Source: Eledone cirrhosa (lineage: Eukaryota). Taken from it: DNA of 64,000 nucleotides. The notes under the pieces were generated by a model, which was not told the DNA's origin, ran no database searches, and saw nothing but the letters and a program-made list of their open reading frames with translations. Below are positions 1,860 to 64,000 of the stretch, piece by piece. The stretch spans positions 17,298,001 to 17,362,000 of the forward strand of contig OZ024762.1 of assembly GCA_964016885.1 (NCBI GenBank), given 5' to 3'. The translations under genes and the position numbers were made by a program. Position 1 is the first letter of the stretch. The number at the start of each line of letters is the position of its first letter.

Positions 1860-2345
1860 AGAATTTCTCTTCTAGGAAGGAATTTTTCTGAATGTAACAC
1901 CAGACGATGATGAAAAGAAAGATGAGAAAGAAGGAGACTTCTGTATGGTGCGCGCACGGTTTTGCTTGCTTCTTTGTGAATTGCGCGCGCTCCGAATTAT
2001 GAATGTAAAAGGCAAAGCGCATTTGTAAAAGTGTTGGCGTAGGATTTGTTTGTCAAAGGCGAAAATTATGAATGTGTTTTTGGCATCAAGCGAAAATCTG
2101 CGTATTTCTCCGTGACTGACTTTCCACTTCAGCTTAGAAACGGTTGTAAATCGTGTGTGAGGCCTGTACAGGCAGCAAATCAATATGTAAGCAGCGAACG
2201 ACTGCTGCATTCTGGGATTGCTGGCTCATTCATAGCTGTGTGCCGAGTTGTGACGTCAGAGCTTTTAAACGCATCCCATTCACCATCAAAGGTGCTGACC
2301 CGTATAGATAGCTTTACAACCAATGTTAGTGTCAGCACCAACACT
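1860..2345. promoter_or_regulatory. Unique island, candidate promoter/enhancer
   Basis: Non-repetitive, CpG-containing. Perfect CRE palindrome TGACGTCA at 2251-2258 next to TTTTAAA (2263-2269); TCF/LEF-like ATCAAAG at about 2285; CCAAT at about 2320. Motif-based inference only, orientation unknown. Confidence 0.35.
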
Positions 2346-3346
2346 ACTACTACAGCTACAGCAGCAGCTCTCTCTCTCTCTCTCTCTCTCTGTCTTTCTC
2401 TTTCTTAGCAATGGTAGTAGTAGTAGTGGTGGTGGTGGTTGTAGTAGTAGTAGTAGTAGTAACAGCAGCAGCCGTAGCTTGTCGTAGTAGAAGTACCATT
2501 AGTAGCTCTACTATTATTATTACTAATAAACATTATAATAGCTAGACGCAGCCTCCCCTCCACCAACACCACCACCACCACCATTTCTACCCTCTCTCCA
2601 CACGCACGCGCGCGCGCATTCCCGTCTCCGCTGCCACTACCGTTTCCACCACCCACTAACACCACTCTACCAGCGCCACCACCACCATCACTGCCACCAC
2701 CACCACCATCACTGCCACCACCACCACCATCACCACCATCGCCATCATCATTGCAGCCTTTTTCACCAGCGACATTTCAGTTGTCGCCCGGGTTTCCCTG
2801 CTCCCCCCTCCCCTCCTCGCTCTCTCCACCACTAGCAGCAGCAGCAGCAGTAGCAGCAGCATAAACATCACCATACGTTGTTGTTGTTGATGCTGTTGAT
2901 GTTGTTGCTGCTGTTGTTGTTGTTGTTGTTGGTGGCGTTATTGTTATTGTTGTTGGTGGTAGTGGCGGTGGTGGTGTTATTGATGCTGTTGTTGTTGTTG
3001 TTGTTGTTGTTATTGATGTTGGTGGTGGCGGTGATGATGTTGCACCACCTTCGCCATCGTCACCACCACCACCACCACTATTCTCATAATTACACAAACA
3101 TCTCCCTCCCTCCCTCCCTCCCTCCCTCCCTCCCTCCCTCCCTCCCTCCCTCCCTCCCTCCCTCTCTCGTTATCTCCCCCTCTCTCTCCCACTCTAGCTA
3201 CCTCCCTCTCTCTAGCTATGAATCTCTCTCTCCCCTTCTCTCGCTATCTCACTCACTCTCTCTATCTATCTATCTCTCCTTCCATTCACTAAATTTTACA
3301 AGCTCCACTTCAATTACTGGCCATTGATATTTTTGCATCGACACCG

Positions 3347-3391
<45 letters not shown>

Positions 3392-3422
3392 TCACTACTA
3401 CTACTATCACTACTACTACCAT

Positions 3423-3457
<35 letters not shown>

Positions 3458-3476
3458 TCACTACTACTACTACCAT

Positions 3477-3515
<39 letters not shown>

Positions 3516-3584
3516 CACTACTACCACCACCACTACTACTAATACTACTACTACCACTACTACTACTACTACCACCACTACCAT

Positions 3585-3633
<49 letters not shown>

Positions 3634-3985
3634 GTTTCTACATCTGGCACAAGGTGTGAGGAATTTCCAAGATGTAAGTCGGTTAAACCGACCTCAGTAT
3701 ATAACTGGTATTTGATCGACCCCCGGATACGATGTTAGACAAAATTGAACTGGGCCAGGTTTGAACTGAGAACATCAAGTTACGTCCCTTTATGGTCTGA
3801 GTTCAAATCCCGCCGAGGTTAACTTTGCCTTTCATCCTTACGGGGGTCGATAAAATAAAGTACCAGTAATACACTGGGATAATTGCTGGCCTTGTGCCCA
3901 AAGTAGAAACATTTATTAAGACTTGGAACAAATTGCACAAGGTGTTTTCTCCGATGCTCTACCGCTTATCACCACCCAGCGCCCT
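3634..3985 (-). mobile_element. Old tRNA-derived octopus-type SINE interrupted by a younger copy
   Basis: Reverse complement of the family tail (gtttcta..ggcacaagg), core (actggta..atcgaccc) and B-box region (tttgaactgagaac); resumes after about 3920. Confidence 0.65.
3778..3918 (+). mobile_element. tRNA-derived octopus-type SINE, 5' truncated
   Basis: ctgagttcaaatcccgccgaggttaactttgcctttcatcctt..ggggtcgataaaataaagtaccagt..aattgctggccttgtgcc..aaagtagaaac; near-identical to the copies at 57057 and 61263. GAGTTCAAATCC is a Pol III B-box. Confidence 0.9.
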
Positions 3986-4929
3986 TCAATCAATGCTATA
4001 ATAAATATTGTCTCTACTATTGGCGGGGCAGGACAAGGAAAAGTTGACCCCAGTGTGTTACTGGTACTTTATTTTAACGACGGTGGGATTTGAACTCAGA
4101 ATGTAAAAACACCAGATAAGGTGGTGGTGTTAGTGGTGGTGGTAGTGCTGTTAGTGGTGGTGGTGGTGGTGGTGGTAGTGTTAGTGGTGGTAGTGTTAGT
4201 GGTGGTGGTGGTGGTAGTGCTGTTGGTGGTGGTAGTGTTAGTGTTAGTGGTGGTGGTGGTGGTAGTGCTGTTAGTGGTGGTGGTGGTGGTGGTGTTAATG
4301 CTGTTAGTGGTGGTGGTGATGGTGGTGGTAGTGCTGTTAGTGGTGGTGGTGGTGGTGGTAGTGTTGTTAGTGGTGGTGGTGGTAGTGTTAGTGGTGGTGG
4401 TGTTAGTGGTGGTGGTAGTGGTAGTGCTGTTAGTGGTGGTGGTGGTGGTGTTGATGGTTGTAGTGGTGGTGGTAGTAATGGTGGTTTCGTTAGTGGTGGT
4501 GTTGAAGGTTGTGGTAGTGGTGGAGTGGTAGTGTTAGTGGTGGTGGTGTTGAAGGTTGTGGTGTTGGTGGTGTAGTGGTAGTGTTAGTGGTGGTGGTGTT
4601 GAAGGTTGTGGTGTTGGTGGTGGTGGTGTAGTGGTAGTGTTAGTGGTGGTGGTGTTGAAGGTTGTGGTAGTGGTGGTGGTGTTGAAGGTAGTGGTAGTGG
4701 TGGTGGTGGTGTTGGTGGTGCTAGAACGTAATAGCAGGCGGTGGAAGCTATGGTTCCAGTTTCGATTCTTGTGGGGGGAAACTTTAGAGAGTTTCCTATT
4801 AGACGGGTACAGGGTGGGAGGGATAGTGTGATGGGGGGTTCTGTAGCAGTGCTTGAGGTGGTGTGTGTATATATATATGTGTGTGTGTGCGTGTGCGTGT
4901 GTATATATATATATACACACACGGTCGAT

Positions 4930-5070
4930 ACGTTATGTCCTTGAGCAAGACACTTTATTTCACGTTGCTCCTTTTACCTGGAGTTGCAACCGATAGATAG
5001 TACTAGCAACTGAAAAGACCAACGGAAACATTGTTTCCTCGGTCCGATTTGATGAAAGTCGATCAATCCT
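4930..5070 (+). mobile_element. Second SINE family core followed by dispersed repeat B
   Basis: gtccttgagcaagacactttatttcacg, then cctggagttgcaaccgatagatagtactagcaactgaaaagaccaacggaaacattgtttcctcggtccgatttg. Repeat B recurs at about 30945, 34860, 47130 (rc) and 49283. Confidence 0.75.
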
Positions 5071-5074
5071 TTAT

Positions 5075-5129
<55 letters not shown>

Positions 5130-5134
<5 letters not shown>

Positions 5135-5306
5135 AACGAGTAGGACCCCGACGGCTAATTCTGGATTTTAGTCCAGAATTAGCCGTCGAAACGGCTTGAG
5201 CTCAGCCGTCGGGGTCCTACTCGTTCCTATTACCTACTCTACTACCCTAAGTATTGAGTACTTTGGTGCGTTATGGTCCACCTGGTTCCTTACCACATTT
5301 CCTTCG

Positions 5307-5308
<2 letters not shown>
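5130..5308 (+). mobile_element. Fold-back Penelope-like cassette (family A) with HHR lacking CUGANGA
   Basis: 27-bp inverted arms 5130-5156 and 5204-5230; 16-bp helix II (5150-5165/5172-5187), GAAA, helix III acggct/agccgt, C, then ggggtc. Tail shared with 31083-31163 and 61112-61188. Embedded in (TA)n. Confidence 0.7.
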
Positions 5309-5340
<32 letters not shown>

Positions 5341-5991
5341 CGGTTATGTATGCAGGAATGAAAAAATCTGTGTGTGGATGTACATCTTTGTGTGTGTGTG
5401 TGTGTGTGTGGATGCACATTGTGTGTGTGTGTGTGTGTGTGTGTGTATGGGTGCACATTGTGTGTGTGTGGATGCACATGTTTCTATGTGTGTGTGTGTG
5501 TGTGCTCGCACGCACATGTCTCTGTATACGTTAGATGAAAGAGTAAAACTGACAGAAAAAGCATGAATGAATGTTGAGAGAAGATTGAGTAACGGCGGAG
5601 GAGCGGTGGGGAGGGGGTTAAAAGTTGTGTATGAATGAAATAGGAGGAGGAGGGAATAAGAGGGGGTGGGGGTATGCATGAAAAAGAGGATGAGGTGGTT
5701 AAGGAAGATGAGAGGAAAATTGTAGAATGAAAAACGAGGAGGATGAGTAGAAAGTTATGAATGAAATCGCGAGGAGGAGGTGGGAAAAGATATGAATGAA
5801 AGAGAGGGGGGAGGAGGGGGGAGAAGGGAATGAGGCAAAGCTGTGAATGGATGAGAATGAGGAGGAGGGAGTAAGAAAAATGAATGAGGGGGGGGGGCAA
5901 CAAATAGTGAACGCATTTGGGGGAAAAGCGCGCGCATGTGAGAAGGAAAGGGGGTGAGGGAAGTGTGTGTGGGGTGGGTGGGGGTGCGTGC

Positions 5992-6026
<35 letters not shown>

Positions 6027-6232
6027 CACGCGCCCGGGTGCGTGTGTAGCAAAGAGTGGGAGAGACAATTGCCATGGAAACTTCATGAATGAAAATAACT
6101 GTGTAGAGAGAGGCAGTGTGTGTGATGTGTGTAGTAGGGTAATTACGTGTGTGTGGTGTGTGTGGTGTGTGCTGTGTGTATGTGGTCAGTGTGTATTGTG
6201 TGTGTGTGTGTATGTGTGTAGTCTGTGTATGT

Positions 6233-6269
<37 letters not shown>

Positions 6270-6512
6270 TCAGTGTGTATGTGTGAGTGTGGTCAGTGTG
6301 TGTGTATGTAGTGCGGTGTGTGTGTGTGTATGTAGTGTGGTGTGTGTGTGTATGTAGTGTGTGTGTAGTGTAGTGTGTGTGTGTGTATGTAGTGTAGTGT
6401 AGTGTGTGTGTGTGTGTGTAAACCTGGGAAAAAGGTGAATGGAAATGCAATCTGCTTGAATGAAATAGAGAATGTATACTTGCATGTGTATGTGTATGTG
6501 TGTGTAAGATAG

Positions 6513-6550
<38 letters not shown>

Positions 6551-6795
6551 GTGTATGTGTATGTGTAAGTGTGTGTATGTGTAAAGTGTGTGTGTGAGTG
6601 AGTGTGTGTGTGTGTGCTCTGAATGAGTGAGGGTGTGTGTGTGTGTGAAAAGTAGAATGAAAGTGACAACTACATGAATGGAAATTTAAATGAATGAAGC
6701 TGCGCGTGTGCGTGTGTGTGTATCTGTATCTGTATGTGTACGTATGATGTGTATATATGTGAAGTATAAATGTATGTATAATGTATGTGTATGTA

Positions 6796-6859
<64 letters not shown>

Positions 6860-7505
6860 ATTGATGCATGTGTGTATGTGTATGTCTATGTATGTATGTT
6901 TTTGTGTTTATGTATGTGCGGGAGTAGCTGATGCAAATGTGTGTGCGTATATTTGTGTGTGTGTCTGTGTGTATCTGTTTAATTGTATCATGTGTGTAAG
7001 TATATATATATATGTGTGTGTTTGTGTGTGTGTGTGTGTTGTTTTCATGCCATTGATAGGGGCGAGGGTGGGAGGGGTGATATGACGATGGTGGGTGTCT
7101 AACAGTGGAAGGGGGTGGAGGTGTAGTGTGTATCAATAGTTCGTAAGGTCGCTTATACCACTGAAAATTAATCGCCCTCGTCCCCATGCGCAAGGTACTT
7201 CCACGTAGATGAGCTGCGACCCGTCATCAGTAACGTGATCCGTGGCTCATTGAATGTTTCCAATGTATCAACATCATACATTCTTGTCCTGGCGACACAG
7301 CCAGGACTGCTTGGGCCCCGACTTCCGTCCCCAAAGCAGCCAACTGTTTTTAATCTGTGGTTTTACGTGAGGACCAGCTGGTCCTTTCTTCTCTACTCGT
7401 GAAACCCAGTAGACTCAGGCGCCTTGCTGAGAAACTTCTGCAAAACCTTACAAGTGAATTTCAGTAATTCATAAGATGGTTTATACAATTGTGTGTGTAT
7501 ATGGA

Positions 7506-7770
7506 CAGCTCATTTCGTCTGATCCACTCCCTTCTCAGCTCATTTCGTCTGATCTACTCCCTTGACAGCTCATTTCGTCTGATCCACTCCCTTCTCAGCT
7601 CATTTCGTCTGATCCACTCCCTTCTCAGCTCATTTCATCTGATCTACTCCCTTGACAGCTCATTTCGTCTGATCCACTCACTTCTCAGCTCATTTCATCT
7701 GATCCACTCCCTTGTCAGCTCAATTAATCTACATTTCGTCTGATCCACACCCTTACCAGCTCATTTCATC
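7506..7770. repeat. 30-bp minisatellite, about 9 copies
   Basis: Unit cagctcatttc(g/a)tctgatc(c/t)actccctt(ct/ga). Confidence 0.95.
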
Positions 7771-8199
7771 TGGCGCATTCACCATATTCTCTACACAACA
7801 GCAACTAAGATCTCTCAAAAGCCAGCAGATGTGTGCCTATTATCTTATCTGGACACATTGCGTTGCTAGCTGTTTAAGAACTTCGCTTCACAACTATGCC
7901 CTGAACGATGGTTCGTCTTCGCTCTCCTTCGACTATACCCTTAACGATGGTTTTAGACAAGGAATCTTAGTGGGATATGTCACTATATCAGACATTTAGC
8001 TGAGACCGATTATGAAAAAAATAAAGAGGTCTGTATAAAAGCTAAAATGCATATCCAATCCAGGGTCTCCTCACTCTTGTTGGAGGAACCCATCCCTGGT
8101 TGACCTCTACTGCTTTCTGTTTGGTTTGGATCATGTCAGGGGTGTAACCGTACTCACCACACTTGGCCAATTGTAGGTTGGTGAGGCTATTTAACTCAT

Positions 8200-8385
8200 A
8201 GTTGGGGCTGGATGGTCCTTGCTTCTGAGGACTTCGTCCGCCCCTTTTAACAGCTCTTGTTTTTTGAGCTGCTGGAGTTCCACTTACCTTCTTCACCTGA
8301 CCAGAGTCTGGTGAGGGGAACCAGGTTTAGTGGCCGACCACTCGACCATGAACCAGGTTCTACTGGCTAACATGGTATAACATGG
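8200..8385 (-). mobile_element. Fragment homologous to the 5' part of the element at 21422 (putative RTE 5' UTR)
   Basis: The reverse complement catgttagccagtagaacctggttcatggtcgagtggtcggccactaaa...aaaaacaagagctgttaaaaggggc..ccatcca aligns by eye with 21441-21603. Confidence 0.6.
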
Positions 8386-8499
8386 TATATATAAGGCCTG
8401 AAGTGGCCCGTGGTAGTAGAGGTGGTAGCAATAGTTGGGTTGAGGTAGTTACATTAGCGATATTAGCATAAATAACCCGCGTCAACATGGAAGCCCCCA

Positions 8500-9090
8500 T
8501 GTGGTCACTTGGCATGCTAAAAATAGCAACTAAATTTCCCTCAAATTGAACCCGATAGTATGCATAACATAGTAATTGACCCTAGCTGCACTATGCCTGA
8601 AAATTAGATGAGGTTTGATGGGATGGGGTAGTCACGGTTGGAAAGGCCTTTCATTATCAGCGCACATGATCGGATCCGTCCTAGGGTTAAATAACAACGG
8701 ATCATTGTTCTTCATGATGATGATGATGATAATATTTAAGCCCTGATCAACGATGATTCACCAGATCTATGATCAAAGCCGTCCCAGCCATGACCATCCC
8801 GTATTTTTGTATACAATTATGCAATGTCTCCTTCATTTGAGGAAGATTTTTGCTGCTCTTTCCTACAAGTTGAGCAGCAGTGTAGAGGCTCCTGGCGTGC
8901 TAGTTGTTGTTGCTTAACCCCCGGGTGATCCCTCATCGAACAGCCCTGTGGTTAAATGCATTCCAGTCATGACCATCCCGTCTTTTCCCCATGTACAGAG
9001 TATCTAGGACGTTATCAAATGTCTCATTTTTAATAAGTTAGATGTGCTTTGAGGGAGATTTGGCTGTTGTTTCTAGCAGTTTGAGCAACT
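8500..9090. mobile_element. Three degenerate copies of dispersed repeat C (one +, two -)
   Basis: Motifs gcta(g/a)aaatagca.c.aaat.tccctcaaa and gggatggtcatg(g/a)ctgg(a/g)a..gc.ttt; further copies at about 39645-39745 and 56085-56270. Confidence 0.65.
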
Positions 9091-15881: not shown

Positions 15882-16002
15882 GCATATATATACACACGCA
15901 TATATATATATATATATATGTTTATCCCGGGTTCAATCGGGGGTAACCACAGTAAGTAAGGTACTCAATACAAAGCAGAGTATAAATATTTGATATAGAA
16001 AT

Positions 16003-16053
16003 GGCTTCTACAGGACTAGAACTGTTTCATTCGGGAGAAATCATCAGGAAGCC
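16003..16053 (-). ncRNA. Type I hammerhead ribozyme motif
   Basis: rc: ggcttc CTGATGA tttctcccgaat GAAA cag ttctagtc ctg TA gaagcc. Helix I is 6 bp perfect, helix III 4 bp, helix II weak. Forms the left arm of a palindrome at 15993-16108. Confidence 0.8.
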
Positions 16054-16098
16054 CTGATGATTTCTCCCGAATGAAACAGTTCTAGTCTTGTAGAAGCC

Positions 16099-16137
<39 letters not shown>

Positions 16138-18722: not shown

Positions 18723-19171
18723 ATACTTGGGGAGGTTCATATTGTTGTAATAATATTGCCAGAAATAATAACAGAACACACTCACTGTTTGGTTGGTTTT
18801 CGCTTCTGTATCTTTTATATCTCCACAGTTAATTCCTTCGGTCCTCAATGTTTACCATTGACTGACCAACGGTCAAAAATACAGATATAATATAGATATA
18901 AACACAATACAACAGGAAGAACATAATAGTACCACTGACGATGTTGCAGATGTGCAACGAAAGAACTTTGTTAGACTATATATATGTGTTTATATCTATA
19001 TTATATCTGTATTTTTGACCGTTGTTCAGTCAATGGTAAACATTGAGGACCGAATGAATTAACTGATATAAAAGATACAGAAGCGAAAACCAACCAAACA
19101 GTGAGTGTGTTCTGTTATTAATTCTGGGAATATTATTACAACAATATGACCCTCCCCAAGTATAACAATAT
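18715..19171. mobile_element. Inverted repeat (arms about 190 bp) with an HHR-like spacer, Penelope-like
   Basis: Arms 18715-18906 and 18985-19171 are near-perfect reverse complements. Spacer contains CTGACGA t gttgca gatg tgcaac GAAA..TA (18935-18973). A fragment of the same arm lies at about 15652-15703. Confidence 0.75.
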
Positions 19172-20874: not shown

Positions 20875-20910
20875 TCTTAACGTTTCGGACGCTAGTCCTT
20901 CATCAGAAGA
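20875..20910 (-). ncRNA. Minimal type I hammerhead ribozyme motif
   Basis: rc: tctt CTGATGA a ggac tagc gtcc GAAA cg TT aaga; helix III reduced to the palindrome AACGTT, typical of PLE-associated minimal HHRs. Confidence 0.8.
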
Positions 20911-31082: not shown

Positions 31083-31288
31083 TAAAACAAAGCAATTGTG
31101 GTAAGGAACCAAATGGACCATAACGCACCAGAGTACTCAATACTTAGGGTAGTAGAGTGGGAAATAGGAAAAAGTATGACCCCGACAGCAGAGCTCAAGC
31201 CGTTTCGACGACTATTTCTGGACTCAGTGTCCAGAAATAGCCGTCGAAACGGCTTGAGCTCTGCCGTCGGGGTCATACTTTTTCCTAT
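31083..31288 (-). mobile_element. Fold-back Penelope-like cassette (family A)
   Basis: 60-bp arms 31164-31223 and 31229-31288 (2 mismatches) centred on the helix II loop; family tail at 31083-31163 on the minus strand; TA flanks. Confidence 0.75.
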
Positions 31289-60761: not shown

Positions 60762-61188
60762 ATAGGAAAATGTATGACCCCGACGGCAGAGCTCAAGCCG
60801 TTTCGTCGGCTATTTCTGCACCAGAAGTCGAAACGGCTTTAGCTCTGCCCTCGGGATCATACATTTCCCTATATATATATATATATATTATGAAAGTAAA
60901 GCAAAGAAGCCTTCAATACATCAAAAGTCTTTATTAGCCAACAATGTTTCGTCCTATTAAGGACTCATCAGGGCAATTAAAACAACAAGAAGTATTATCG
61001 GCCAATACAAGCCGGAAACTCTATAATACGAAGAGGGTGTTTAACTCCAACACGCTCCAGTATTTTAACCCTTATATATATATATATATTACATATATAT
61101 ACATACACACATACTCTACTACCCTAAGTATTGAGTACTCTGGTGCGTTACGGTCCATCTGGTTCCTTACCACAGCTCCTTCGTTATA
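60762..61188 (+). mobile_element. Fold-back family A cassette split by a second HHR cassette
   Basis: Imperfect palindrome at 60762-60872; family tail resumes at about 61112; intervening 60890-61072 is bounded by TA tracts. Confidence 0.7.
60933..60978 (-). ncRNA. Type I hammerhead ribozyme motif (H1)
   Basis: rc: gcc CTGATGA gtcct taat aggac GAAA c att g TT ggc. Confidence 0.8.
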
Positions 61189-61251
61189 TATAATATATAT
61201 ATATATACAATGATATTAAATAAATGGAAACTATATTTATAAAACCATATT

Positions 61252-61484
61252 TATTCTATTATGTAGAGGGTCTGACGCCATGCTTTGCAGCAAAGAGTTA
61301 CGGCCCTTTATGGTCTGAGTTCAAATCCCGCCGAGGTTAACTTTGCCTTTCATCGTTACAGGGTCGATAAAATAAAGTACCAGTAATACACTGGAATAAT
61401 TGCTGGCCTTGTGCCAAAAGTAGAAACAATTATATATATTTCAAGGGTACCAAAGACTTTGGTACGCTATCATCAGATAAAATA
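61252..61484 (-). ncRNA. Type I HHR motif (H2) interrupted by a SINE
   Basis: rc: tattttat CTGATGA tagc gtaccaaag t ctttggtac cctt GAAA tatata TA [SINE] atagaata. Confidence 0.7.
61263..61428 (+). mobile_element. tRNA-derived octopus-type SINE
   Basis: Near-identical to the 3778 copy; flanked by an ATTAT direct repeat (61258-61262 and 61429-61433). Confidence 0.9.
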
Positions 61485-61696
61485 CAAAGTGTGTTTTATA
61501 AATTGTGACATTCTCCCATAAGGTTGAGATGCAATTTGGGCAATATTAGGCTGCGCTTTCTAGCAACCAGCCTACTAGCCGTAAGGCACCAATCACATTC
61601 TTTCTGACTTGACCACTGCCACGTCACAGTTCTTAGCCATTTTGAATTCGCTTCTGGCGGGGATCATTTAAGAAAAATCTTTGTCCAAGTGAGTTT

Positions 61697-61777
61697 GTTT
61701 CCTGATGAGTTCGAAGCTCGAGAATTTATCCTTGATAAGATATTTCCGAAAGCGAACGAAAGCCTAAGGGTAGAAAC
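61697..61777 (+). ncRNA. Type I HHR motif (H3)
   Basis: gtttc CTGATGA gttcg..long loop..cgaac GAAA gcctaaggg TA gaaac; one mismatch in helix III. Confidence 0.75.
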
Positions 61778-62071
61778 GTAATCCTGGTATGTTTATATAC
61801 ATTTTTTCTTGGAACTTTAATTTTATACCTAATTGTGTATGGTTGACGATATATTTAATCGATTTCTACGTGCTTTTGAAATGATGGGTAAATATTCTAT
61901 AGCTGTTGATCGCGAATAAATGGCTGTCGTTTATTTATCTATCATTTCTTCATAGGTGCCTTTTAATCTTCTAGCCTGGTCTAATTGATTTTTTGTGTGG
62001 TTGATTATGCTAATTGGGAGAGGAAATGGTGTATATATCTTATCAAATGATTCTATGGACATAATTTATAG

Positions 62072-62155
<84 letters not shown>

Positions 62156-62156
62156 C

Positions 62157-62241
<85 letters not shown>

Positions 62242-62320
62242 TATCGAATAAGAAAAAGCGAAGTAGTTTCAGATGTTAAAGTCCTTTAATGATAATGCTG
62301 TGATACATATTTCAATGACG

Positions 62321-62371
62321 ACAGTGACCACACGTTTCGGTGTACCCAGTGCCGTGACATCATCAGACAGC
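62321..62371 (-). ncRNA. Degenerate type I HHR motif (H4)
   Basis: rc: gctgt CTGATGA tgtcacggcactgggtacacc GAAA c gtgtg g TC actgt; helices I and II imperfect. Confidence 0.6.
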
Positions 62372-62689
62372 TTCTTACATAATAAGGTTATGTTTCGAGG
62401 CAATCCAAATTGAATCGACATGGGAATGGACAAAGCGTGTGCTCTTTAATACTTCGCCTGTTCACCTGCGAGTCCCAATTCACCCCCACCAGTCTGCGCA
62501 GGCGCAAGTCCAAAGGAAGTTGACCATCAACTACCCCAAAGTTCTACGAAACTCGCTTAGGCAGGCCTCCCTCTCAACCAAACAATCACCCCACCCAGGT
62601 CTGTAATATGACACCGTGTCATATTACATATATGTAGGTTTTGCATTTTCCTGTTGACAAGTGTTTTTAGGCCTCATATCATGTTACCT

Positions 62690-62759
62690 TATTTTATCTG
62701 ATGAGAACACAATTTTTGTCCCAGGATGATATTGTTTTCGAAATGGCAATAATAAAATA
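62690..62759 (+). ncRNA. Type I HHR motif (H5)
   Basis: tattttat CTGATGA gaacacaat..attgttttc GAAA tggcaa TA ataaaata; helix I is 8 bp perfect. Confidence 0.8.
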
Positions 62760-62976
62760 TATGGAACTTCTTTAACCATCTTTTAATTTCTTCTTTAATA
62801 TATACTCCAGTTCTACCAACTGTTGAGTGCTACTTATCTGATATATGCATAGTTTTATTGTTCTACAATATTACTCACCTTCTACATATATATAGATATA
62901 TATAGACATATATGTCCCAAGGCTCTGATACCATCAAGACTATAAACACAGAGCTGGCATATCTAAGAACTGACTA

Positions 62977-63032
62977 ACTGCCTGATGAGGTCATAGCCAT
63001 TGAATGGCTATCATCGAAATATATATAGCAGT
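62977..63032 (+). ncRNA. Type I HHR motif (H6)
   Basis: actgc CTGATGA ggtc atagccat tga atggctat catc GAAA tatata TA gcagt; palindromic helix III. Confidence 0.85.
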
Positions 63033-63073
63033 AAATAAAGGATTATGAGTTCATGCAATTGACTTATGTTTCG

Positions 63074-63114
<41 letters not shown>

Positions 63115-63120
63115 CACTTG

Positions 63121-64000
63121 GGTAGATCAACCACCAGTCACATCCTGATGCTGAGGAGGATATTAGAGGGAGCTAGAGCAAAGTGCCTTCCTGCGGTCAT
63201 GGTTTTCATTGACTTTAGGAAGGCCTTTGATTCTGTGGACCGTTACTGCCTGATGAAGATCTTACAGGCTTGTGGAATCCCCAAGAAGATAATGGACCTG
63301 ATATCACTGCTCTACACCAACACCAAAGCCCAAGTCATTACACCTGATGGGATGACAGAGTTCTTTGAGATACTGGCTGGAGTGCTCCAGGGAGATACAT
63401 TGGCTCCCTACCTTTTTATCATCGTAGTGGACTATTGTATGCGCCTTGCACTGGAGAAACACCAGGACTCTGGCTTTACTGTAGCACCGGCTCAGAGCAG
63501 GAGAGTTAGGGCGAAAAAGGTATCGGATGCTGAATTTGCCGACGACATAGTTTTGGTGACAAATACAGTGAAGGAGGCAGAGGATTTGATGCGGGAGGTT
63601 GAGACTGTGTCGATGAGTGTGGCGCTGAGAATGAATGAGACTAAAACAAAATATCTGGTAGAGAATGTTGAGAAGCCTGAGGGGATCACTAATGTAGGCG
63701 GGAAGCCGCTGGAATTGGTTGAGGACTTCCTGTATTTGGGAGCAAAGATTGGGAATACGGAGGATGATGTGGTTGAGAGGAAGAGCAAGGCCTGGGCGGC
63801 GTGCCACAGCTTGAGATCGGTGTGGAAGTCGGACCTTCGTAGAGACCTGAAAATCCGCCTCTTCATTGCTGTAGTGGAGTCTGTGCTGCTGTATGGGTCT
63901 GAGACTTGGACACTGACCAAGAAACTCACTCAGATGGTGGATGGGTGCTACACGAGAATGCTGAGGATGGCTCTGAACATTAATCAGTATACACTGAGGA
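63121..64000 (+). mobile_element. RTE-clade LINE reverse transcriptase, 5' truncated, frame open to window end
   Basis: My translation: GRSTTSHILMLRRILE..FIDFRKAFDSV..GVLQGDTLAPYLFII..FADD..MNETKTKY..FLYLG..LLYGSETW; no stop in 293 codons. Confidence 0.95.

Follow-up and report, generated by a model that had tools for sequence, protein, structure and literature searches.

The closest described relatives of the sequences analysed here are the Penelope-like elements (PLEs) of the Hydra clade. In Craig et al. (2021, PMC8557442), this clade is characterised by RWK and DKT motifs, a CxCX5C linker, the lack of a CCHH motif, and CxxC and CxH motifs around the E and N residues; its members carry canonical hammerheads and insert into (TA)n. 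The supplement contains Hydra-1_Obim from Octopus bimaculoides, with a (TA)n preference and a hammerhead ribozyme (HHR). Regarding the enzyme, PMC11167929 reports that a PLE protein cuts AT-rich DNA and begins reverse transcription inside the RNA, that hammerhead cleavage required the protein, and that insertion in vitro could proceed without such cleavage. For the minimal hammerheads (min-HHRs) of metazoan PLEs, Cervera and De la Pena (2014, PMC4209133) describe single motifs that did not cleave in vitro and dimers that cleaved weakly, as well as a U3-A8 core variant in Schistosoma PLEs (Cercyon elements). In the part of PMC13282606 consulted, 31 recently active Penelope-like families are reported for Octopus vulgaris, and the repeat library of that study may already include the families described below. 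A literature search, with most subscription papers outside its scope, turned up neither a census of cephalopod hammerheads nor a description of hammerhead islands of the present kind.

Results

The hammerhead island and its parts

The window, that is, the whole 64,000-nucleotide stretch of Eledone cirrhosa DNA that was analysed (G000:C23:17298001-17362000), belongs to a 3.0-Gb assembly of 1796 contigs and is rich in simple repeats (TA, CA and similar). It contains 19 copies of CTGATGA against 10.95 expected, and 6 of the 19 lie inside a 2.3-kb island, which a preliminary description had interpreted as six different hammerheads plus a fold-back half. From our family searches, it is very probable that these 2.3 kb consist of the 5′-truncated tails of seven separate high-copy, hammerhead-carrying families, most of which lead into Hydra-type Penelope-like genes in longer copies, and that they likely arrived as independent insertions, at different times, in one TA-repeat patch. 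The observations behind this stacking of tails are the families themselves, their links to open reading frames (ORFs), the (TA)n ends, the head-to-head pairs, the SINE within H2 and the differing ages. The parts of the island are as follows.

60764..60870, no strand assigned: fold-back, a head-to-head pair of very short 5′-truncated 3′ ends of a Hydra-type PLE family (fold z = -13.1; long copies, with reverse transcriptase (RT) and endonuclease upstream in L356)
60890..61021, minus strand: 3′ end of the H1 family, whose minimal hammerhead is intact (core at 60971-60965) and is predicted to cut after 60940; an inverted partner without tail (full pLTR-ORF-pLTR copy in L129)
61020..61070, plus strand: tail-only 51-bp copy of the H1 family, ending in (TA)n (equivalent piece 50 bp beyond the pLTR in L084 and L129)
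61110..61185, plus strand: fold-back family tail (240 bp away from the fold-back here, against 8 bp in intact loci)
61208..61262, minus strand: 3′ part of the H2 family, with the helix I 3′ arm and the element end
61268..61430, plus strand: high-copy SINE-like repeat within H2 helix III (154 matches in 800 kb; 8-bp near-duplication at its flanks)
61440..61505, minus strand: 5′ part of the H2 family, with helix I arm, core 61476-61470, helix II and GAAA (continuous with the end of a GIY-YIG ORF in L277, L292 and L293)
61506..62070, plus strand: H3, a 5′-truncated copy that covers positions 115-680 of an ORF-less unit of 680 bp arranged head-to-tail; core 61702, position 15.2 mutated
62071..62245, no strand assigned: (TA)n tract that served H3 and H4 as target and flanks both on their 3′ side, recognised from its sequence
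62247..62625, minus strand: 3′ end of the H4 family; its hammerhead spans 62371-62297 and is predicted to cut after 62302 (linked to an ORF in L309 alone; an ORF-less variant occurs in tandem)
62636..62885, plus strand: 3′ end of the H5 family; hammerhead core 62698, helix III palindrome degraded (endonuclease-continuous in 6/29 copies)
62912..63068, plus strand: 157-bp 3′ tip of the H6 family, which ends in (TA)n and whose minimal hammerhead is intact, with its core at 62982 and a cut predicted after 63027 (pLTR-ORF-pLTR in L064)

Right after the last TA tract of the island, at window positions 63110-64000, there is a 5′-truncated LINE RT fragment (Pfam RVT_1, E 1e-19) that extends into L001.

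All six CTGATGA cores of the preliminary description are present at their positions, and the six motifs exist; the details of four of them have to be revised, since H2 is split by the SINE, helix III is mutated in H3 and H5, and the GAAA of H4 had been misassigned. H2 is not the contiguous ribozyme proposed for 61252-61484, being broken by the repeat at 61268-61430, which we take to be a SINE and which is flanked by ATTATGTA and ATTATATA within helix III. For H4, the span is 62297-62371, with an outer GAAA at 62313, instead of 62321-62371 with an inner GAAAC; the outer form TATGTA-TC-ACAGC is identical in 24/29 copies, and the inner GAAAC varies among copies and is not conserved. H5 reads TGGCAA in the window, where 18/29 copies have the palindrome TGCGCA, and H3 has a G at position 15.2 (GAAAG..) where its family has C (GAAAC..), with loss of the first helix III pair.

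Copy number, age and junctions

For each family the genome itself was searched at the DNA level, and the best 40 candidates, self included, were scored. All scored candidates match (40/40 in each of the six family searches) and they lie on many contigs; the numbers of first-look candidates were 127 for H6, 2186 for H1, 3855 for H3, 2760 for H4, 2803 for H5 and 1897 for H2, and a 32-mer of the fold-back has 244 exact matches. The identity between the window copy and the best other copy is 100% for H1, 99.4% for H6, 97.1% for H5, 96.9% for H2 (5′ part), 94.6% for H3 and 93.8% for H4. Since these best identities differ between families, the insertions differ in age, and some families are very young, with H1 copies 99-100% identical. 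The spacing between the fold-back and its tail, 8 bp elsewhere and 240 bp here with H1 in between, indicates that H1 is likely nested.

H2/H3 and H4/H5, previously regarded as divergent pairs, are adjoining fragments of unrelated families. With queries across the two junctions, both sides were covered only by the window itself among the best 40 candidates each, and junctions that are single among the scored matches mean that these pairs merely abut.

Parent elements of the Hydra clade

An upstream walk from H6 arrives at the end of a GIY-YIG ORF, and complete layouts are found as H6-ORF-H6 in L064 and as H1-ORF-H1, with an inverted copy upstream, in L129. An RT that bears a GIY-YIG endonuclease at its C-terminal end lies upstream of the hammerhead for H1 (L129), H6 (L064, L061) and H5 (L313, L314), and upstream of the fold-back family in L356. 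For H2 the link comprises only the endonuclease end (L277, L292, L293), whereas RT motifs are seen for the other linked families. The DNA runs without interruption from the endonuclease into the cassette in 6/29 H5 copies and 3/30 H2 copies.

The linked ORFs carry RWR, DKT, YRDD or YHDD, CxCx5C, GIY-YIG, CxxC..E and N..CxH, although not every motif occurs in each fragment. The N-terminal RWR of the H1 and H6 ORFs is a conservative variant of the Hydra RWK; DKT replaces DKG in the H1, H5 and H6 ORFs; and the CxCx5C linker is present in the H1, H4, H5, H6 and fold-back ORFs and in neither of the two H2 fragments scanned. CxxC..E and LN..CxH are both present, and by inspection a single Cys is located between the GIY and YIG halves, where CCHH would be expected in the endonuclease. 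By eye, the Hydra-1_Obim protein shares its motif blocks with the linked ORFs. Preferred insertion into (TA)n was observed for the island families, as were pLTRs, the inverted 5′-truncated partner and the one-ended tail. Pfam returned GIY-YIG matches for the Hydra-type ORFs under the cut-off only, and no RVT_1 match. At first reading the endonuclease appeared Neptune-like, but the CxCx5C linker and DKT indicate Hydra instead; of the Neptune/Nematis features, neither the CX2-5CxxC linker nor CCHH was found in the island-linked ORFs, which carry CxCx5C.

Judged by these motifs and by a by-eye comparison with the published alignment, the linked ORFs belong to the Hydra clade of PLEs, and five of the seven families, on the same grounds, are 5′-truncated ends of ORF-bearing Hydra-clade PLEs. 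The suggestion that the island represents an undescribed system is therefore not borne out, because these five families belong to a clade already described with hammerheads and a (TA)n preference (PMC8557442, part consulted). The elements piled up here are of a known kind, although packed with unusual density; new here are the families of Hydra-type PLEs and one retrozyme-like unit.

Other PLE genes were encountered along the way. A stop-free frame of 622 residues at L065:3764-5629 (minus strand) encodes a Hydra-type RT and endonuclease of a family absent from the island; a protein search with this ORF, which is unlinked to the island, gave 540 matches, and those listed share 38-57% identity, with almost none of them named. 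PLE ORFs of a different type lie near copies of island families at L318:1685-3184 and L005:1-1191, and the L318 linker is CX4CxxC, Neptune-like.

H3 and H4, and the retrozyme alternative

H3 is a 680-bp, ORF-less unit with one type I hammerhead each, and is thus retrozyme-like. An ORF lies directly upstream of H3 in 0/29 copies, and the ORFs found beside some copies (L105, L106, L121, L127) were rejected as neighbouring insertions, their strand and distance being variable. The unit's own 3′ end is directly upstream in 16/29 copies. Two or more consecutive units with complete hammerheads occur in 0/29 close H3 copies and are present in a relative of ~73% identity: at L134:1130-3251 (G000:C12) there are three tandem 656-bp hammerhead-bearing units and an inverted copy. 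This array is the best retrozyme candidate seen. We have dropped the idea that the partial upstream units of H3 are bounded by the cleavage site (16/16 start at or beyond 391, the cut being at 382), since this has a chance of roughly 13% and the diverged relative crosses the site. For H4, an ORF link was found in one copy (L309), and in 7/12 inspected copies its own tail lies upstream, head-to-tail and without an ORF; two copies on C2 are spaced 1377 bp apart. The tandem copies suggest an internally deleted tandem form.

Could all the cassettes then be non-autonomous elements of the retrozyme type, spreading via circular RNAs? In form, H3 fits such an origin, with its own 3′ end upstream in those 16 copies and no ORF in any, and so do the three-unit array of its diverged relative, with a 656-bp period, and the seven head-to-tail H4 copies. 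The longer copies of H1, H2, H5, H6 and the fold-back family, however, continue into ORFs, and the short forms of these five families have scattered 5′ ends, as expected from truncation. For these five families a retrozyme origin is already refuted by the ORF-continuous copies, and as an account of all the cassettes it is very unlikely. Truncated PLE tails stacked on TA remain our preferred explanation, although the ORF link in 0/29 copies for H3, and in one copy for H4, counts against it. Of the earlier reading as non-autonomous, TA-targeting ribozyme retroelements in one hotspot, the TA-targeting, the Penelope-type minimal hammerheads and the single spot stand; non-autonomous applies only to H3 and to part of H4.

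Two further tandem arrangements were seen. In G000:C12:17.03-17.49 Mb (L101-L104, L107-L109) a trio of H3, H5 and a third family recurs every ~60 kb, as a large tandem segmental repeat. At L196:3650-4580 and L200:9335-9955, units of 310 bp are repeated in tandem and each bears one hammerhead; their size fits described non-LTR retrozymes.

Density and association with TA tracts

In 60 systematic 10-kb stretches (600 kb) we found 61 motifs against 2.7 in shuffled DNA, or ~1 per 10 kb, and 20 further stretches on C23 gave 12 against 0.3; extrapolated, the genome would hold ~3 × 10^5 hammerhead motifs. With an extended descriptor the 80 stretches contain 75 motifs in 28 families. A (TA)5 lies within 200 nt downstream of 57/74 sampled motifs, compared with 30% of random positions, and stretches with more TA tracts also have more motifs (rho 0.49, p 5e-6). 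TA tracts number 47 per 10 kb in the window, where the mean is 25 across the sample.

At most two distinct families share 2.32 kb in the 80 systematic stretches. Among 174 loci anchored on one family copy, 18 have no family, 98 have one, 41 have two, 15 have three (including 7 that are copies of a single C12 segment), 2 have four and none has five; the island has five by equal measure, or seven counting H2 and the fold-back. The island, a stretch that was picked for its density, is thus a true outlier in the sample, at ~20 times the mean, yet the end of a continuous series, and extending that series suggests many such islands genome-wide. That it is denser than all sampled stretches and loci counts against simple stacking. 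The preliminary description had itself conceded that its case would fail if all the cassettes were Penelope LTRs at genome-average density: this largely applies, as most of them map to such elements, although the local density is above average.

Outside the island, but in the window, a head-to-head pair of another hammerhead family at 15990-16110 (cores 16047 minus, 16054 plus) has the classic arrangement of inverted PLE stubs. Further hammerheads or truncated stubs of other families were noted at 18935 (plus), 20906 (minus), 47782 (plus), and 22591 and 40059 (both minus), the last two ending in helix II at a TA tract.

Hammerhead structure in the families and at the locus

An initial strict descriptor matched only H5 and H6 and was then relaxed. 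The resulting type I descriptor, which asks for the core, a helix II of 4 bp or more, GAAA, UH and helix I, recovers 5/6 island motifs (H1, H3, H4, H5, H6) and one at 20906. H1, H4, H5 and H6 in the window satisfy the CUGANGA core, GAAA, UH and helix I pairing; H3 satisfies the type I criteria save for the 15.2-16.2 mismatch, and H2 does so only across the SINE. Motif details were compared in 29 copies per family, and by this comparison the window motifs of H1, H4 and H6 have the common, intact form of their family, which counts against the stacking of tails. At the island locus, three of the six motifs (H2, H3, H5) are damaged.

In a double hammerhead, the 5′ arm of one partner must pair with the 3′ arm of the other. 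The proposed heterodimers find no support here: H2 and H6 cross-pair in helix I over 0-1 bp, are on opposite strands, and H2 is split by the SINE; H6 and 47782 cross-pair over only 3 and 1 bp; H2 and 47776 again have opposite strands, with H2 split, and helix I of the 47776 motif is itself broken (CTCTC/GTGTT). Full cross matches of helix I occur only in opposite-strand pairs, H2/H5 and, one way, H4/H6.

These observations bear on whether selection keeps the island as a co-opted ribozyme barrier that would work both ways, cutting read-through transcripts on either strand. Its motifs are indeed on both strands, at a density above that of all 254 sampled stretches and loci, and H1, H4 and H6 match the intact family form. 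A selected barrier would nevertheless be highly improbable here, given that half of the motifs are damaged, that the fold-back lacks its core, that the junctions are unique among scored matches, that helix I across same-strand partners pairs mostly over 0-1 bp, that single metazoan min-HHRs showed no in vitro cleavage (PMC4209133, part consulted), and that about one such motif per 10 kb occurs genome-wide regardless.

Helix covariation among the families, on which the preliminary description had made its case depend, is present in helix III, in the pairs for which the descriptor has no requirement. Pair 15.2-16.2 is Watson-Crick in 25/27 families, with 3 pair types, and 15.3-16.3 in 22/26, with 4 pair types, a level reached by 0/5000 shuffles; pair counts for helix I are circular, because the descriptor demands that helix. 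The core and helix test is passed by 23-29 of 29 copies per family. Hammerhead structure is therefore under selection in the lineage, not at the island locus. Within the island, Rfam matches only H1 (RF00163, 29.1 bits, under the 34-bit gathering score), and the miRNA matches that it gives across the whole window were rejected as microsatellite-driven and uninformative. Predicted monomer folds have a three-way junction only for H3, and their z is ~ -2.3 in the case of H1 and H6, with weak values for H3, H4 and H5. That repeat DNA rich in AT produced these motifs by chance, as the single sub-threshold Rfam score and these weak folds might suggest, is already refuted and has practically no probability left, in view of the 61 motifs against 2.7 in shuffles, the covariation across families and the copies that meet the core and helix test.

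The fold-back family and its U3-A8 core

The fold-back was correctly recognised as the 3′ half of a hammerhead, as confirmed by longer copies of its family. Each arm retains only GAAAC-helix III-UC-helix I, and the U3-A8 core is absent here. Of 30 pattern-selected fold-back loci, 5 are long and read ACCCC-TTGAGAA or TTGACAA, in some cases CTGAGAA, then a long helix II and GAAAC-GGC..GCC-GUC-GGGGT, which identifies the fold-back as the 3′ half of a hammerhead of the U3-A8 type; locus L356 runs on upstream into RT and endonuclease. A canonical CTGANGA 10-40 nt upstream of the half had been considered, and the 42 instances are heterogeneous, mostly chance juxtapositions, the real core being U3-A8. 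Two further U3-A8 fold-back-plus-tail insertions, also without core, lie at window positions 5171-5308 and 31086-31286.

In an 800-kb sample (L195-L274), 0/39 fold-back arms reach the core. Of these arms, 30/39 start in helix II, and 27 of these 30 do so at 39-53 nt from the core start, a 15-nt band, with starts taken as BLAST ends, so that subfamily divergence may contribute to the band. In the same sample, the core is kept in 12/19 H5, 9/9 H6 and 13/13 H2 matches. This truncation band may come from reverse transcription stalling at helix II.

Discussion

The sequences point to the following course of events. The GIY-YIG endonuclease of an element would nick (TA)n, and its RT would copy from near the RNA 3′ end and usually stop early. 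Most stubs would carry the hammerhead because it lies ~40-300 nt from that end. Every insertion leaves flanking TA, which would be a fresh target, and through such self-renewed targets the stubs would come to stack. The ribozymes at the island are likely passengers; for the parent elements the prediction is that they work on tandem transcripts, either as dimers or assisted by protein.

A bolder picture can be drawn, in which Hydra-clade PLEs seeded ~300,000 hammerheads whose fold shapes the insertions: stalling of RT in helix II of the U3-A8 family would mass-produce ribozyme-less fold-backs, H3 would be a 680-nt cephalopod retrozyme with a circular RNA, mobilised by Hydra enzymes, and dense islands like the present one would be genuine hot spots at which intronic or read-through RNA is cleaved. 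As a whole, we consider this picture unlikely.

The value of the present analysis is in annotation, since many Hydra-clade families appear to explain a large share of the genome's short TA-flanked repeats. The genome is also good material for testing the role of the PLE hammerhead, as it has dozens of families in parallel, a sharp truncation band in helix II of the U3-A8 family, and an ORF-less tandem partner.

Comparison with known systems

H3 resembles the non-LTR retrozymes (Cervera and De la Pena 2020, PMC7229834; Li et al. 2026, 10.64898/2026.07.22.740005; parts consulted) in being an ORF-less head-to-tail unit with one type I hammerhead each and in co-occurring with PLEs. Its unit of 680 bp is longer than the 150-450 bp of the retrozymes described in those parts; in contrast to them it occurs mostly as one-and-a-part units without long arrays, has inverted partners of the PLE kind, and is known here from DNA alone.

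The hammerheads share with the metazoan PLE min-HHRs of Cervera and De la Pena (2014, PMC4209133, part consulted) the type I topology, the short or palindromic helix III, the long helix II, the many families per genome, the mostly solo occurrence, the opposite-strand pairs 100-700 bp apart and the U3-A8 variant. The number differs, being ~3 × 10^5 by extrapolation here and 2,000-9,000 in Schistosoma, coelacanth and Xenopus with the descriptor of that paper, as given in the same part.

With the Hydra-clade PLEs, as presented in the parts of PMC8557442 consulted, the present elements have in common an RT followed by GIY-YIG, DKT, CxCx5C, CxxC and CxH flanking E and N, a hammerhead close to the 3′ end, insertion into (TA)n, inverted 5′-truncated partners and the one-ended tail. 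The clade members described there are below 3 kb, whereas ~4 kb separate the pLTRs in L064 and 4.7 kb in L129, the present elements being longer because of their long 3′ UTRs. Finally, compared with the one octopus Hydra family found in those parts, at least six linked families are seen here, and 28 hammerhead families in 800 kb.
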